Below are positions 16,795-21,519 of a DNA stretch of 64,000 bases, piece after piece. A program made the position numbers and the translations under genes. The DNA is from an uncultured archaeon (GTDB lineage Archaea > Thermoproteota > Nitrososphaeria > Nitrososphaerales > Gagatemarchaeaceae). The first letter of the stretch is position 1; the number at the start of each line of letters is the position of its first letter. The DNA is taken from positions 64,001 through 128,000 of the forward strand of contig CAWFOU010000001.1 of NCBI GenBank assembly GCA_963817525.1, read 5' to 3'. The notes under the pieces are model-generated. The model was not told where the DNA came from, searched no databases, and was given only the letters and a program-made list of their open reading frames with translations.

Positions 16795-17587
16795 CGAGAG
16801 CCCCGAGTTCGACGACGACGACCAGGAGGCCGTCCCAAGGCCCTACTCGGTCCAGCAGCCCTTGCCTCCCGCGTCTGGCAAGGAGGGCGGGAAGAGGAGG
16901 CTCAAGTTCTACGGCCACGGGATGCCCTACCTCAAGGACCTCGAGGTGAAGGGGCACCTCATCGTGATAGAGGGGCCTGACGCCTCGGGGCGGAGCACCC
17001 ACACCCAGAGGATACAGGCCAAGCTCGAGGCCGACGGGCACGCCGTCCTGGGGACGGGACTGAAGCGCTCCGAGCTCATCAGCGAGGGGATCATCGAGGC
17101 GAAGGGCAACCTCGGGGTGGGGAAGCGCACCCTGTCGCTCTTCTACGCCGCGGACTTTGCAGACCAGCTCGAGAACAAGATAATCCCAGCGCTCGAGGCC
17201 GGGTACGTCGTGCTGGCTGACCGCTACATCTACACCCTCATAGCTAGGAACAACGTGAGGGGGATCGAGCGGCGGTGGTCGAGGAGCCTCTTCGGTTTCA
17301 CCCTCGTCCCCGACCTCATCTTCTACCTCGACGTGAGGCCTGAGGAGCTCGTCCACCGCGTGTTCCAGAAGAACTCCATCCTGGACTACTACGAGTCGGG
17401 GATGGACATCGGGCTCTCCGACGACATGTACAAATCCTTCCTGATCTATCAGGGCAAGATGGCGAAGGAGTTCGAGAAGATGAAGAAGCTCTTCGGGCTC
17501 CAGTTCGTCGACGGGAACCGCGCCATCGACAAGGTCGACTCTGACCTCCAGGCGCGCATAGACGAGTTCCTGAACCGGCCGAGATGA
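16787..17587 (+). CDS. Thymidylate-kinase-fold protein 2 (altered P-loop; candidate regulatory subunit)
   Basis: EGPDASGRST (K to R), LADRY. Paralog of the preceding gene. Confidence 0.85.
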   Translation: MASESPEFDDDDQEAVPRPYSVQQPLPPASGKEGGKRRLKFYGHGMPYLKDLEVKGHLIVIEGPDASGRSTHTQRIQAKLEADGHAVLGTGLKRSELISEGIIEAKGNLGVGKRTLSLFYAADFADQLENKIIPALEAGYVVLADRYIYTLIARNNVRGIERRWSRSLFGFTLVPDLIFYLDVRPEELVHRVFQKNSILDYYESGMDIGLSDDMYKSFLIYQGKMAKEFEKMKKLFGLQFVDGNRAIDKVDSDLQARIDEFLNRPR

Positions 17588-18399
17588 ACCCCACGCACAT
17601 CGCTTCGCAGCAGCTTGCCAAGGCCTTCAACCGAAACATCGCCACGGTCGACGCGCGCCTTGAGGAGTTCCTGAAGGCAGGGGACTCGCCAACCACCGCC
17701 TCCCTGAGGAAGGCCATCGCAAGGCTCAGGACGACCTATTCCGTACTTCCAAAGAGCGAGAGGCAGGAGGCGCAGACCGTGGGATACCTCTCGGCCGCCA
17801 AGAAGCTGTCCAAGGCGGTCGGTAGGGTGAGGGACATCGACACGATAGCGGCCTGGACGATGCAGCTCTCCGAAGGCAAGGACCAAAAGTCCTTCATCGC
17901 CGACCTGGGCAGGCTCAGGGGCATGGCGCTCCGGACTGCGATCGAGAGGGGCAGGAAGCTCCGGAAGAAAAGGTCGCCCTTCCTAGACCTCCGCGAGCTC
18001 GACGGGCACGGCGATGGGAGGCGCGTGGCGAAGGTCGAGAGGCGGCTCTCCAGGAGGGTCGACAAGGAGTTCGAGGAGTTTCTTTCGTCCCAGGAGGTGG
18101 AGGTCATGCACTCGTTGAGGAAGGACGCAAAGCGCCTCAGGCACCTGCTCGAGCTCACTGAGAGGGGGGAGGCCACGCCCCTGCTCGTGAGGCTCAGGTC
18201 GATCCAAGATGACCTTGGGGCGATACGCGACCACGACCTGGTGATCGACTACCTCCGCAGCAGGGTCAGGCTTACGAGCACGCGCTCCCTGATTCGGGAG
18301 GAGATAGCGAAGAGGCACGCTAGGCTCGAAGACTTTGTCACCAAGAACAGAGGGCAGGGGCACCTCGTCCCCCTCCCCGCAAAGCAGAGGTCTAGTTAG
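17584..18399 (+). CDS. CHAD domain (polyphosphate-binding) protein
   Basis: GRVRDID, HSLRKDAKRLRH, QDDLGAIRDHD. Confidence 0.9.
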   Translation: MNPTHIASQQLAKAFNRNIATVDARLEEFLKAGDSPTTASLRKAIARLRTTYSVLPKSERQEAQTVGYLSAAKKLSKAVGRVRDIDTIAAWTMQLSEGKDQKSFIADLGRLRGMALRTAIERGRKLRKKRSPFLDLRELDGHGDGRRVAKVERRLSRRVDKEFEEFLSSQEVEVMHSLRKDAKRLRHLLELTERGEATPLLVRLRSIQDDLGAIRDHDLVIDYLRSRVRLTSTRSLIREEIAKRHARLEDFVTKNRGQGHLVPLPAKQRSS

Positions 18400-18419
18400 C
18401 CCGAATCGCCTGACTATCC

Positions 18420-18469
18420 TTTTTAACATTGCAAGGGGCGGCAAGTCGCAACAGCCCGGTGGTGAAGCA
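18420..18469 (+). pseudogene. Orphan promoter and 5' fragment of intron-less tRNA-Gln
   Basis: TTTTTAAC (18420-18427), then AGCCCGGTGGTG (18453-18464), identical to nt 1-12 of the spliced tRNA downstream. Confidence 0.7.
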
Positions 18470-18508
18470 CTGCCATGGGCCTCTAAATACTGACCCGTCT
18501 TATCCAGC

Positions 18509-19285
18509 GTGGAAAGGTCTAACCTTGAGGGCGCATTCTCTCGAGTCGTTCGAATCGCCAAGATCAAACCTCGAGGTAAAGGGTTCGGTGTCAAAGGGTC
18601 TGCGCATACCGTGCTGTGGTCGAGATACGACGACTTCAGGCTTGGCATTCTCATCGGTATGACATATGGTGACGGTAATCTCATCAAGAGAAGCGCTGGA
18701 ATGAGAACTGGAAGATGGCGGGTGGAGTTCTGCGAGGGTGACCTCTCACTAGTAAGAAAGTATGCTACTCTCACCAGACGACTGTTCAATCTCCAACCGA
18801 GGATAAGGAATCGTGAAACCTGGTTTGAGATGTATTACAGTAGCAGAATCGCATACGAGTTCCTTACTTTCGTAGGGGAGCATCCTAACGGGAAAAAAGC
18901 AGGGCACCTGAGGATACCCGAAGTAGCGAGATTGTACCCGGAAACCCTTAGAGGGTTTCTGTGTGGTTTGTTTTCAGTCGAGGGGTATGTAAAGGGAGGG
19001 AGATATCTCAGGTTAACTGTGGAAATGCTCGAGCGGCGGCTTTTATGGTCGGTCGCGGATGAGCTGAGGAAGCTCGGCTTCCAACCACACTCGTATGCAT
19101 ACATGAAAGACGGGAAGAGAATGTTCGGAGTCTACTTGTATGGCTTTGAAGATTGCGGCAGATTCTTGGACAAGGTGGGCCTGTTAGGGAAGAGGAGAAT
19201 AAAGTTGAGCAGGTTTTTAACCACGACACTGCAGCCGAGGTTAGCTCGGAAGCAGCCCGGTGGAGGATTGGTCCGCCGAATGTAG
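18509..19285 (+). mobile_element. Two-motif LAGLIDADG homing endonuclease gene overlapping the tRNA-Gln 5' end
   Basis: Motifs GILIGMTYGDGNL and GFLCGLFSVEGYV. AT-richer than flanks. Stop TAG lies in tRNA exon 2. Confidence 0.85.
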
Positions 19286-19369
19286 TGGTCAAGCATGCTG
19301 GCCTTTGGAAGAGGCGGAAACGTCTCGAGAGGACAGCCGGCGACCCAGGTTCGAATCCTGGCCGGGCTA
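19254..19369 (+). tRNA. tRNA-Gln(UUG) with two introns (19264-19280 at 10/11; 19309-19334 at 37/38)
   Basis: Exons 19254-19263, 19281-19308 and 19335-19369 give a 73-nt cloverleaf: A1-U72 acceptor AGCCCGG/CCGGGCT, anticodon arm CTGGC-CTTTGGA-GCCGG, GGTTCGAATCC. Both introns form BHB-type motifs. Confidence 0.9.
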
Positions 19370-19476
19370 CCTATCTCAATGGAATCCTTTGCACCCAACT
19401 GGCCCTTGAAGCCAATGACCCAGGTTAGAATGCTGGATGGGCTACAGGTTTATGTACTAGCGGGAAAGTAAATGGG

Positions 19477-19728
19477 ATGGGAATTCTGATGGGCGAGGCA
19501 GTCATAGACGAGCGAGGAAGGATAGTGATTCCGAACGAGATAAGGTCAGAACTCAAACTGAGACCCGAGCAGAAACTCAGGATATCCAGGAAAGGGAAGG
19601 ATCTGCTGCTTTCGCCGGAGGTAAGTGCGGACGAGTTCATTTCAGAGCTGAGAGGCTGCGTGCACGGCTCGAAGATCAAGCCCGCCGACCTCAAGAACAT
19701 CTGGGGTGTCGGCCATGCTCACCATTGA
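19477..19728 (+). CDS. vapB: AbrB/MazE/SpoVT-type antitoxin
   Basis: IDERGRIVIPNEIR. Overlaps the PIN gene. Confidence 0.85.
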   Translation: MGILMGEAVIDERGRIVIPNEIRSELKLRPEQKLRISRKGKDLLLSPEVSADEFISELRGCVHGSKIKPADLKNIWGVGHAHH

Positions 19729-20128
19729 CACGAACATCTGGGCCTACTACTTGGACAGTGACTGTTCGGAGCATCGATCGGTCGTCGGACCGGTGGAGAA
19801 GGCACTCAGGTCAGAGCAGATAGCGATAAACACAATAATCGTGATGGAATTGGCCCACTTTCTCGTCAAGAGCCTTGGAGCTCCGATAGGCGGAGAGAAG
19901 TTGGACGAGTTCCTTCGATTCCCGCTGGTCATCACGGACTTTGATTACCGGCACGCCCTCGGCGCAATAGAGATGCTGAAGAAGTACTCGCACTTGGGCA
20001 TCGGGGGCAGGGACGCAACGCTCTTGGCCATGATGGACGGCGCCGGCGAAAAGAGGATAATGACTCACGACGAACCGCTGAAGAAGGTCGACTGGATCGA
20101 ATCTATCGACCCAGTCAAACTGGCCTGA
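19706..20128 (+). CDS. vapC: PIN-domain toxin
   Basis: IDTNIW, E, GRDATL, MTHD acidic residues. Likely start ATG 19715. Confidence 0.85.
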   Translation: MSAMLTIDTNIWAYYLDSDCSEHRSVVGPVEKALRSEQIAINTIIVMELAHFLVKSLGAPIGGEKLDEFLRFPLVITDFDYRHALGAIEMLKKYSHLGIGGRDATLLAMMDGAGEKRIMTHDEPLKKVDWIESIDPVKLA

Positions 20129-20284
20129 GACGGCGCCAAATTCCCGCCTGAAAACCCCTAAACAGGTGCGGCCCTGGACGGGCTATCTCCTCATTTTTGT
20201 GCCCTGTTGCGTCAACGGAGTCGAATACTTCTGTGTTGATTATCTTGCTCGGCAAGCAGATGCTTGGCGAAGACCCTGGCCTGA

Positions 20285-20696
20285 CTATTTAGCGGGACTA
20301 CCGCGTAGCACGCGACCGACTGGCCTACCGTAAAGATAGCCAATCACCATTGCAAGAGCCAGAAACCTTGGTAGGTTGATTATCGCACCGACCAAATTGA
20401 AGACAGAGAGATTGTTGAGATTGACAAGAGTTGAAAAGGCTTCGATGATCAGTAGGGCAGCAAAGCTGAGAATCACCGACTTCACAATCGAATTCTTAGA
20501 TGGGATCCTGTCATAGGCGCGAACTAAGGAATAGCTGACGAAGCATCCTATGACCAACCCACCGACCAAAGGCGACCTTGTTGGCCGTTGCAGTTGCATC
20601 TCCGGAGACAATGAACGTTGAGCGAAAGTATGACGCAAGAGCAAATGTCCCAATGAAGACCAGATAGAAGAAGCCAGCCATTCTTGCGGCTAGCAT
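20285..20696 (-). pseudogene. Fragmentary membrane-protein remnants (DUF4386-like N-terminus joined out of frame to another TM fragment)
   Basis: ARMAGFFYL...IVSGDATATAN breaks off, and a hydrophobic ORF continues in another frame. AT-rich. Confidence 0.45.
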
Positions 20697-20734
20697 CCCT
20701 TGCGATTTTAAGGGGCATAATGCTCCCTTCGGTC

Positions 20735-21457
20735 ATGGGTCAGAAAGAGCGGAAAGCGAGAACAACGTCATCGCCCATCAAGGGAAAGCTAGTGACTAAG
20801 ACCTTCAACTACGACGGTGGTCGGCAGGCGACGGTGTACGTCCCGCCAGTTCCGGCCGAGGCAGTCGTGTTCGCCGGTGACGGCCAGTTGATCTCGCAGT
20901 GGGGCGGTGTCCTTGAGGCCGCCGGCGTACCGCCGACCATGATTGTCGGCATCCACCGGCTGGACGACGAGATGCTCAGGCTCCACGAGTACTCGCCGGC
21001 CTTTGACGCGGAACGGTTCGCGGCGCACGAGAAGTTCTTCGTCGAAGACGTCCGCAAATGGGCGCGGAAACGTTTCGGAGTCGCGCTGCCCGCCGAGCGC
21101 ACGGCGGTGTTCGGCGTCTCCGCGAGCGGAGAGCTCGCCCTCGCCATGGGGCTTCGCCATCCCGACATCTATGGTTCGGTCTTCTGCGCATCGCCGGGCG
21201 GAGGATACCGACCGCCTGTCGTGATGCCGGATTCACTCCCGCGCGCTTACCTCGTCGCCGGCACGTTAGAGCCGTTCTTTCTCGAGAACGCGACCCGTTG
21301 GGCGGTCGCATTGCGCGACGCAGGTGCGGAGGTTGTCATGACCGAGCGGGTTGGGTCGCACGGCGACGCGTTTTGGAGAGAAGAGTTCCCGCTGATGGCG
21401 GCCTGGACGTTCGGACGCTTAGGGACTTCTCGGACAAATCGAACCGCGAGCCTCTAA
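20735..21457 (+). CDS. Alpha/beta-hydrolase putative esterase (Fes-like)
   Basis: TVYVPP, GVSASG nucleophile elbow, C-terminal GSH. Confidence 0.8.
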   Translation: MGQKERKARTTSSPIKGKLVTKTFNYDGGRQATVYVPPVPAEAVVFAGDGQLISQWGGVLEAAGVPPTMIVGIHRLDDEMLRLHEYSPAFDAERFAAHEKFFVEDVRKWARKRFGVALPAERTAVFGVSASGELALAMGLRHPDIYGSVFCASPGGGYRPPVVMPDSLPRAYLVAGTLEPFFLENATRWAVALRDAGAEVVMTERVGSHGDAFWREEFPLMAAWTFGRLGTSRTNRTASL

Positions 21458-21519
21458 TCCTGGACGCGCTATCTCTCCGAGCCAAACTCTTATATCGTTG
21501 CCGGCATCGTTGAACGGTA

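Follow-up and report, generated by a model that had tools for sequence, protein, structure and literature searches.

A LAGLIDADG endonuclease cassette at the 5' end of tRNA-Gln(UUG) in Nitrososphaerales and a candidate route of tRNA intron gain

The stretch of DNA analysed here (the window) comprises 64,000 nt of contig CAWFOU010000001.1 (positions 64,001 to 128,000 of the forward strand) in assembly GCA_963817525.1, from an uncultured archaeon of the family Gagatemarchaeaceae, order Nitrososphaerales. The genome holding the window is referred to as G000, and window positions 18453-19371 correspond to G000:C1:82453-83371. The gene for tRNA-Gln(UUG) in this window was found to be interrupted near its 5' end by an 818-bp cassette that carries a LAGLIDADG endonuclease gene, and the 3' end of that gene overlaps a second promoter, a second exon 1 and a 17-nt bulge-helix-bulge (BHB) intron. 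Comparison with related genomes makes it probable that a mobile LAGLIDADG cassette invaded tRNA-Gln(UUG), by collaborative homing of the endonuclease gene with an intron allele that already existed. As judged from sequence, the locus shows one concrete way in which an archaeal tRNA gene would gain an intron, namely by insertion of an endonuclease gene at the start of tRNA-Gln.

A repeat scan (family D10) returned CAGCCCGGTGG as an exact direct repeat at 18452-18462 and 19253-19263, with a spacing of 801, and the box TTTTTAAC was found twice, at 18420-18427 and 19214-19221. The upstream copy of the 11-mer reads on with TG, as in the spliced tRNA, and then diverges. The repeats, the twin boxes and the TG continuation had been described in an earlier note on this DNA, and all were recovered at the positions given there. 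Because another exact 10-mer repeat (D18) is present in the same 1.8 kb, the 11-mer taken alone is weak evidence within the window; a chance repeat was set aside because the two-copy architecture recurs at 6/6 endonuclease loci of the same genus and in metagenome contigs.

All elements of the locus lie on the plus strand. The native tRNA-Gln promoter, the TATA-like TTTTTAAC at 18420-18427, now stands 5' of the endonuclease open reading frame (ORF) and presumably serves it. The stump AGCCCGGTGGTG (18453-18464, from the repeat scan) begins 25 nt downstream of this box; it represents the first 12 nt of the original tRNA-Gln and is identical to positions 1-12 of the intron-less gene. The inserted cassette was placed at 18465-19282 by comparison with the empty site of genome G012, although limits of 18463-19280 fit equally, owing to the ambiguity of a TG dinucleotide at both junctions. 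The LAGLIDADG ORF (18509-19285, 258 aa) has a GTG start and ends with TAG at 19283-19285, within exon 2. The internal TATA-like TTTTTAAC (19214-19221) lies inside the ORF codons R-F-L-T and is proposed as the tRNA promoter; it is followed by the leader segment AGCTCGG (19243-19249), which mimics tRNA positions 1-7 and is called the pseudo-acceptor below. Exon 1 of the functional tRNA-Gln(UUG) (positions 1-10; 19254-19263) is separated by the 17-nt BHB intron (19264-19280, tRNA position 10/11, relaxed HBh' form) from exon 2 (positions 11-37; 19281-19308, anticodon TTG at 19305-19307), which in turn is separated by a 26-nt intron at the canonical position 37/38 (19309-19334, reported by ARAGORN -i) from exon 3 (positions 38-73; 19335-19369, Rfam and ARAGORN). 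Over its last 24 codons the ORF takes in the downstream TATA box as well as exon 1 and the whole 17-nt intron, and the stop codon is U13-A14-G15 of the tRNA; this read-through had been claimed earlier too. The portion of the ORF tail that is intronic amounts to only 17 nt.

The working tRNA gene is accordingly 19254-19369, with two interruptions (17 nt after position 10 and 26 nt at 37/38). Default ARAGORN gave no tRNA anywhere in the window, and the Rfam tRNA match (19279-19361) was sub-threshold (27 bits vs a gathering score of 29) and covered only the 3' two thirds. When 19264-19280 and 19309-19334 were deleted in silico, ARAGORN called a 75-nt tRNA-Gln(UUG) starting at 19254, whereas the unspliced stretch yielded none; the limits of exon 1 and of the 17-nt intron are based on this result and on the sequence itself. 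No other tRNA-Gln(UUG) gene was returned by genome-wide ARAGORN -i on G000, and an apparent second copy on C7 was rejected, being the antisense of tRNA-Arg. With the -i option the locus itself was labelled 'tRNA-Glu(ctc)' with an 838-nt intron, starting at the stump (18453). Four further long-intron calls were made in the whole of G000, one of them inside the FtsX permease gene of the window; the calls at C1:825835-827385 and C7:177304-179094 were read as false positives, holding ORFs of 364 aa and 411 aa with no LAGLIDADG motifs by eye. tRNA finders miss or mis-call genes of this kind, and automated annotation will mis-describe such loci. Short contigs from four soil DNA runs, identical to the window and with no joints, bridge 18358-18914 and 19143-19377; mis-assembly is disfavoured by these contigs, but the runs may be the source samples.

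Filled and empty alleles within the genus

The genus sample comprised 23 genomes. In G012 the same CHAD-domain neighbour and the same promoter, TTTTTAACATTGGAATGGGCGGCGAGTCCCAAC, are followed by an uninterrupted AGCCCGGTGGTGTAG... tRNA-Gln that keeps the 37/38 intron. The G012 promoter resembles the region of the upstream box in G000, not the internal one, and the 33 nt from the 18420 box to 18452 match it at 28/33 positions by eye. As promoter and tRNA body in G012 correspond to those of G000 but have no such block between them, G000 equals G012 plus 818 bp: filled and empty alleles differ by one block made up of ORF, promoter, exon 1 and intron, as collaborative homing would have it. The suggestion that endonuclease gene and intron had arrived together is upheld by this comparison with the intron-less G012. 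An intron-less tRNA-Gln stands behind the same promoter in G006 as well, and intron-less genes were found in 10 genomes altogether (G001, G002, G003, G004, G006, G008, G012, G015, G016 and G018). The intron is not universal among endonuclease-free relatives, at least 10 of the 17 such genomes in the genus being intron-less; tRNA-Gln(UUG) was not found in three of the 23 genomes (G014, G017 and G021).

The endonuclease gene was present in 6/23 genomes, always in the same architecture, with the internal TATA box kept in 6/6 and the GTG start kept in the alignment of these loci. The ORF is intact in G000, G022 and G007, open in G020 except for two N in the assembly, and frameshifted in G019 and G013. 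Four genomes (G005, G009, G010 and G011) have the internal unit (TATA box, leader, exon 1 and intron) without ORF, stump or native promoter; G009 combines the synteny of G000 with an in-register 49-nt remnant of the 3' end of the ORF. One precise site that is polymorphic for presence and absence, together with decayed copies, is the pattern of a homing cycle.

In a gene tree of GcvPB (one gene) the states were interleaved, with at least six changes in cassette or intron presence over 16 tips. Sister pairs of unlike state were formed by G012 (empty) and G019 (endonuclease), by G013 (endonuclease) and G004 (empty), and by G011 (module only) and G001 (empty), and the three pairs were supported at 98/96, 98/97 and 100/100. 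The 26-nt intron at 37/38 is present in G019, G022 and the empty-site G012 and absent from G020, G007 and G013; it is independent of the cassette, since its presence and absence cut across the cassette states.

The ORF matched Pfam LAGLIDADG_3 with an E-value of 7.4e-8 (33 bits, cut-off 22.5) and has the make-up of the LAGLIDADG class, two motifs with a catalytic acidic residue each in one chain of 200-300 aa. Motif 1 is LGILIGMTYGDGNL (~18641-18682, ..GMTYGDG..) and motif 2 is LRGFLCGLFSVEGYV (~18947-18991, ..LFSVEG..); the acidic residues D55 and E158, one per motif, are invariant across three intact homologues. Profile matches in the PDB were weak (PI-PfuI, the putative archaeal homing endonuclease 2dch and I-DmoI). 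The LAGLIDADG protein is the only ORF within the 818-bp insert, where no recombinase or integrase gene was seen, and an Rfam covariance search of 18000-20000 with E up to 10 gave no match to a group I intron. Elsewhere in G000, weak LAGLIDADG similarity was seen at C1:934670-935068 within a frame of ~1129 aa that has homologous frames in G006, G014, G017 and G022; the likeliest source is the endonuclease domain of an intein within a large host protein.

Two further observations concern the intron-less genes of the genus. Their D-loops vary 3' of the insertion point (GTAGTGGTC, GTAGCTGGTC, GTAGATAGGCC and GTAGTCGGTC in L028 of G012, L043 of G008, L038 of G018 and L041 of G006), and variation of both length and sequence in close relatives is unusual for a D-loop; that it reflects escape from recognition by the endonuclease is pure speculation. 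In L038 (G018) the CHAD gene and tRNA-Gln(UUG) are separated by a 319-aa ORF with helix-turn-helix (HTH) and LAGLIDADG parts (505-1461) that is not similar to the enzyme of G000. This ORF overruns a TATA-like box together with a leader, GCCCGAGGC, similar to the pseudo-acceptor of intron alleles, and the adjoining tRNA is without the 10/11 intron. This HTH-LAGLIDADG family is multi-copy, with six matches in G000 and one to six in each of the 19 of 41 genomes that had a match. A role of tRNA-Gln as a hot spot for the family was considered and found unsupported, as only the G018 locus of 12 Rfam-scanned loci adjoins a recognisable tRNA.

The 17-nt intron, its leader and its distribution

Helix H is formed by CGGT at 19258-19261 (C5-U8 of exon 1) and GCCG at 19275-19278, near the 3' end of the intron. 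Each splice site falls within a bulge of 3 nt (GG|A and AA|U), and an inner hairpin (GGA/UCC) closes the 17-nt intron. The core is that of a BHB motif, a 4-bp helix (CGGU/GCCG) between two 3-nt bulges. With helix and bulges fitting, and with ARAGORN calling the tRNA after removal, the description of the downstream copy as interrupted by a 17-nt BHB intron is borne out. In 33 distinct intron-bearing alleles taken from stored loci, helix H pairs 4/4 in 33/33, two of the four pairs being fixed by the search pattern, and its free positions vary (GCCG, ACCG, GUCG and AUCG). The inner hairpin h' has a mean of 3.6 bp, against 0.59 bp when shuffled, with nine different arm starts and diverse arms (GGA/UCC, AAGG/CCUU, AGGG/CCCU, GGAC/GUCC, GAGCAU/AUGCUC and others); it covaries. 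Two EndA-domain genes were found in G000, as expected for the heteromeric enzyme type, which is able to cut non-canonical introns according to the available text of PMC5829648. Splicing is predicted, in that removal of the intron in silico gives a canonical tRNA and the host has splicing endonuclease genes.

A pseudo-acceptor with at most one mismatch and at most 22 nt from +1 was found in 33/33 intron alleles vs 4/36 intron-less alleles, the sequences counted being related and not independent. This copy of the 5' acceptor strand sits 1-13 nt 5' of +1 in intron alleles (AGCCCGG; in G000 AGCUCGG, 19243-19249). The conserved motif is AGCYCGG, and the variants within it are C-to-U changes, which preserve G.U pairing with the 3' strand. 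Small hairpins had been noted earlier in front of both 11-mer copies; the downstream one (CCGAG/CTCGG) exists but is not conserved as a hairpin, the conserved element being the pseudo-acceptor. When 14 alleles were folded singly by minimum free energy (MFE), the leader was paired with the 3' acceptor strand in 14/14 and exon 1 with the intron in most; in MFE folds without the leader the ordinary acceptor stem formed and helix H was lost. The TATA-like box ends 21-25 nt 5' of the pseudo-acceptor in 28/33 intron alleles and mostly 25-27 nt 5' of +1 in intron-less alleles, a spacing which suggests that transcripts begin at the mimic. The leader mimic would hold the 3' strand so that a splicing motif overlapping the acceptor stem can form, an interpretation modelled on these folds. 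The element is unreported, and splicing close to the acceptor stem may depend on it.

Three points count against this picture. The outer helix h of a strict BHB motif is missing, with at most one pair (C57-G82 in window numbering). The TATA regex was crude and returned no box in 5/33 intron and 20/36 intron-less alleles. RNAalifold, applied to 12 pre-tRNAs in a MAFFT alignment with misaligned leader columns, gave the ordinary acceptor stem and no leader pairing; because the pairing was not reproduced there, the idea of the leader's role is drawn from the association across alleles and from single-sequence folds. As a separate observation, a pseudo-acceptor-like leader is present in the 4/36 intron-less alleles counted above (e.g. 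..CCCGGTAGCCCGTGT 5' of +1; L131, L152, L132 of genus g23, L135 and L151), and such alleles may be intron-loss derivatives of the intron module.

The order-wide sample comprised 301 genomes of 75 genera. A strict 10/11-intron pattern was found in 63/301 genomes and 26/75 genera, with one match for the reversed control pattern, and the intron-less pattern in 28/301 genomes. The endonuclease profile (E <=1e-15) was found in 5/301 genomes of one family, these being G000, three more of its genus and G137 of a second genus, where the locus has the same architecture as in G000. Four of these five are among the 63; G137 was missed by the strict pattern yet carries the intron. At least 59/301 genomes have the 10/11 intron without the endonuclease, and in many lineages the intron-bearing tRNA gene follows a DUF354 gene with no space for an ORF. 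The co-occurrence that the earlier note proposed to check holds in one direction, all 13 endonuclease alleles that cover the site having the intron, and fails in the other, the intron being often found without the endonuclease. The main reading of that note is largely upheld, but its view of intron and promoter as creations of the endonuclease gene is not borne out: the intron allele and its promoter predate the endonuclease, because the intron is found in 63 genomes against 5 of the 301, with the same kind of leader and the same TATA spacing. We infer from these sequences that the endonuclease gene joined an already existing intron allele on the 5' side, with the enzyme's C-terminal codons running over the promoter, and that it would carry this allele into intron-less genes. 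The cassette was found behind three native promoter types, each typical of the intron-less alleles of the host clade; this fits repeated homing within clades, and it also fits an old insertion with co-divergence. As to neighbourhood, tRNA-Gln lies directly 3' of a same-strand DUF354 gene in many families of the order (L033, L039, L065, L081, L091 and others); the CHAD neighbour in the clade of G000 in place of DUF354 therefore points to a rearrangement there, of the tRNA or of its surroundings.

Proposed mechanism and alternatives

According to the mechanism proposed, the old promoter and the 12-nt stump would now start the endonuclease mRNA, and the internal TATA box would drive transcription of the tRNA. 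The leader mimic would pair with the 3' acceptor strand and free C5-U8 to pair with GCCG of the intron, giving the splicing motif; the two-subunit splicing endonuclease would then excise the 17-nt and 26-nt introns, and RNase P would trim the leader. The enzyme would cut intron-less tRNA-Gln DNA near positions 10-12, its own allele being immune with the target split by the intron, and repair of the break would transfer the endonuclease gene to the cleaved gene along with promoter, exon 1 and intron. Later the endonuclease gene would decay and might be deleted while the intron stays. Cleavage at the intron site is suggested because the insertion point (10-12) coincides with the intron position (10/11). 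Like this specificity, the immunity of the own allele, the use of the promoters, the role of the leader and continuing mobility are read from comparison of sequences.

The source of the 5' end of the tRNA was considered in a pool of genome loci and 11 metagenome contigs, in which the duplicates L171/L172, L179/L180 and L173/G022 were merged. The downstream exon 1 was perfect (10/10) in 13/13 distinct endonuclease-bearing alleles covering it, and 9/9 metagenome loci that reach the tRNA have the downstream module. The stump was perfect (12/12) in 5/14 distinct alleles (G000, G019, G007, G013 and L170) and altered in the other nine, by C3A, C4G, G6A, G2A+U7, U7 (twice), U8C accompanied by other divergence, loss of 1 nt and, in G137, heavy decay. 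The positions altered belong to the acceptor stem or helix H, and several of these alleles have an intact ORF. The stump of G020 has U7, as does the intron-less G006 (U7:A66), whereas the working copy of G020 has G7:C66; the incoming block therefore brought exon 1 and converted the 3' half. As sequence conservation has it, the mature tRNA-Gln most likely derives from the internal unit with the 17-nt intron, because downstream exon 1 is intact in 13/13, the stump is changed in 9/14, and four genomes have no stump. The alternative offered by the earlier note, in which 18453-18462 is the true exon 1 and an 818-nt ORF-bearing BHB intron (18463-19280) is spliced out as happens with archaeal rRNA introns that bear an ORF, perhaps to circularise and act as endonuclease mRNA, is disfavoured by the same counts and is judged quite improbable, even though the upstream copy forms the same CGGT/GCCG helix and 3' bulge, joining of 18462 to 19281 in silico also gave tRNA-Gln(UUG) in ARAGORN, and ARAGORN -i spans the locus from 18453, if with the wrong tRNA identity. 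Relaxed bulge-helix-loop motifs are reported to be cleaved by crenarchaeal-type enzymes, and stump and native promoter are more conserved than their surroundings. Set against splicing over 818 nt are the nine stumps with changes that break the acceptor stem or helix H next to a downstream exon 1 that is always perfect, the four genomes that keep the internal unit yet have neither stump nor native promoter, the closing pairing of the 818-nt intron, which is not conserved (the sequence after the stump cannot be aligned between clades), and the covarying inner hairpin, which is local to the 17-nt intron. The ORF lies outside the 17-nt intron, not within the spliced RNA as in a classical mobile intron. 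Splicing over 818 nt may nevertheless occur as a minor parallel route.

Several observations weigh against the mobility of the cassette as proposed. The endonuclease genes share 52-75% nucleotide identity vs 73-83% for GcvPB in the same genome pairs; they appear to be old, with no sign of recent transfer, which a single ancient insertion and subsequent losses could explain. In the endonuclease tree G007 was grouped with G137 (support 99/97), in conflict with the host tree; the two have the longest branches, and for this reason the conflict was excluded from the main evidence. The stump is still recognisable in 13/14 alleles despite flanks that cannot be aligned, for which neutral decay is no obvious explanation. 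In G005, G010 and G011 a search for an ORF remnant 5' of the TATA box gave local alignments that did not exceed those of shuffles or controls, and these genomes may never have had the ORF. Most intron-bearing lineages need no endonuclease, because the intron is far more widespread. It is on the whole unlikely that a free-standing LAGLIDADG gene inserted once in the ancestor of the family and has been inherited vertically and decaying since then, with no ongoing homing and an enzyme that may have ceased to target tRNA-Gln; this would agree with the greater divergence of the endonuclease genes, which broadly track two host clades, with a promoter 5' of the stump that is the host clade's own, and with the restriction to one family. 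Each intron-less allele with an intact native promoter would, however, need a precise excision of 818 bp, and recombination between the exon-1 repeats would retain the intron and not restore an intron-less gene. The state changes on the gene tree, the foreign allele import to which the U7 stump and G7:C66 working copy of G020 point, and intact ORFs with conserved catalytic residues in at least three genomes and several metagenome contigs also speak against such a static relic. An integrase-type event, in which the att site of a plasmid or virus with an intron-bearing tRNA 5' end recombined and duplicated the 5' part, would explain a layout like that of Caldiarchaeum tRNA-Thr (in the available text of PMC3293823), and the decayed 3' copy of the tRNA at 19397-19445 beside a duplicated vapBC block suggests integrative events at this tRNA. 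It is nevertheless extremely improbable: the insert encodes the LAGLIDADG protein and no recombinase, a plasmid or virus would need far more than 818 bp, the repeat measures 10-12 nt and lies at the 5' end of the tRNA, and the 3' pseudo-copy is specific to G000 and not found at other endonuclease loci.

A second cassette at tRNA-Leu and relation to known systems

A comparable cassette was found at tRNA-Leu(UAA) in G001 (L012, 1215-2300), G003 (L017, 1216-2290) and G018 (L018, minus strand). The LAGLIDADG ORF there encodes 269-284 aa (degenerate in G018), belongs to LAGLIDADG_3 by Pfam and is 25-28% identical to the ORF of G000. Downstream of the native promoter and a 5' tRNA stump come the ORF, a duplicate promoter (AACGCTTTTGACAG) and then the whole tRNA-Leu, enlarged near position 26/27 by an additional insert of 16-20 nt; the G001 locus is read by ARAGORN -i as a single tRNA-Leu with a 991-nt intron. 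In G000 the tRNA-Leu(UAA) gene (C8:109487-109587) has the native promoter type and neither ORF nor 26/27 insert. The sequences suggest that the design of stump, ORF and duplicate 5' module may be general. As a tentative and somewhat doubtful extension, a class of LAGLIDADG cassettes in soil Nitrososphaeria might spread BHB mini-introns by means of a duplicate promoter, 5' exon and target-splitting intron, with loss of the endonuclease leaving orphan introns, the leader serving as an RNA device for splicing, and the stump perhaps permitting a long splice to a circular endonuclease mRNA. If true, archaeal tRNA genes would have a general way of gaining introns that can be observed directly, with two unrelated-looking cases (Gln 10/11 and Leu near 26/27).

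Collaborative homing in phages is reportedly exemplified by the cyanophage psbA group I intron with F-CphI and by T4 mobE with the nrdB intron. A free-standing endonuclease there mobilises, in trans, an adjacent intron without endonuclease (available part of PMC2790892). The tRNA-Gln locus resembles such cases in having the endonuclease gene outside the intron and beside the intron-bearing gene, inherited as one block, and in an intron at or near the presumed cleavage site, by which the own allele would be immune. It differs in its setting, an archaeal chromosome with a tRNA host gene and a BHB intron spliced by protein where the phage introns are ribozymes, and in its duplicate promoter, duplicate exon 1 and stump of the old gene, with a cleavage site deduced from the insertion. 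In archaeal rRNA BHB introns with an ORF, the ORF lies within the spliced intron. The locus shares with these (I-DmoI and relatives) a double-motif LAGLIDADG enzyme tied to a BHB-spliced gene; here, unlike there, the working intron has 17 nt and the ORF lies 5' of the tRNA transcription unit. The Thermoproteales route of tRNA intron spread copies introns between different tRNA genes, and we know of no protein agent identified for it. At tRNA-Gln, by comparison, a single intron at a single site would pass from one allele of the gene to another along with an endonuclease gene. The transposition-like Thermoproteales spread served as positive control in bioRxiv 10.64898/2026.10.13.758758, in the available text of which the arrival route of Asgard tRNA introns remains open; as portrayed there, it is, like the present case, a route proposed for the multiplication of non-canonical BHB introns. 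Archaeal group I introns were in rRNA genes in 39/39 cases in the available part of Nawrocki et al. 2018.

For Caldiarchaeum subterraneum tRNA-Thr(GGU), the available text of Sugahara et al. 2012 (PMC3293823) describes a tRNA 5' fragment, followed by an insert that encodes a recombinase and then by a tRNA copy containing an additional intron, together with a model of delivery by a mobile element. As far as that text goes, the two loci have in common a 5' fragment preceded by sequence of its own, a co-oriented enzyme gene, a tRNA with one more intron, and filled and unfilled alleles coexisting among close relatives. The Caldiarchaeum insert is given there as 1.8 kb with a putative DNA recombinase and site-specific integration, whereas here the insert has 0.8 kb and a LAGLIDADG gene and implies homing by break repair, and the ORF, unlike the one described there, overlaps the new promoter, exon 1 and intron. 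No archaeal tRNA gene with a homing endonuclease was found in the open-access literature (without supplements or subscription papers), and the word 'homing' occurs nowhere in a review of tRNA introns. The sole mobile-element case of a tRNA intron found in that literature is the one with a recombinase, not a homing endonuclease (PMC3293823, as far as available). From the phage systems and from the Caldiarchaeum locus alike, the present one is set apart by a LAGLIDADG agent, a protein-spliced tRNA intron and an ORF fused to a promoter-exon-intron module.

How tRNA introns, above all those at non-canonical positions, are acquired in archaea is an open question, and here close relatives display the whole series: the empty gene, the gene after invasion by an endonuclease together with the intron, decayed endonuclease genes, and the intron alone. 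Collaborative homing, known from group I introns in phages, would come to include introns spliced by protein and the chromosomes of cellular archaea, and tRNA intron gain in archaea becomes directly testable at this locus.

The tRNA-Gln(UUG) region is flanked by the CHAD-domain gene (17584-18399) and by a MazE/PIN pair (19477-20128). A decayed copy of tRNA-Gln from the anticodon arm to the 3' end, without the 37/38 intron, was found at 19397-19445 (81% over 36 nt); it sits 27 nt past the real gene and was seen in G000 only, not at the other endonuclease loci. A second, 99% copy of the 759-bp block from 19428 (19428-20185, the tail of the pseudo-tRNA with the MazE-PIN pair, which is vapB/vapC-like) stands at G000:C1:784545-785303, and an esterase-like ORF (window 20689-21471) gave an 86% match to the DNA just 5' of this second copy. 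The 3' duplication has the look of a scar, left by integration or duplication at the 3' end of the tRNA and probably unrelated to the endonuclease cassette.

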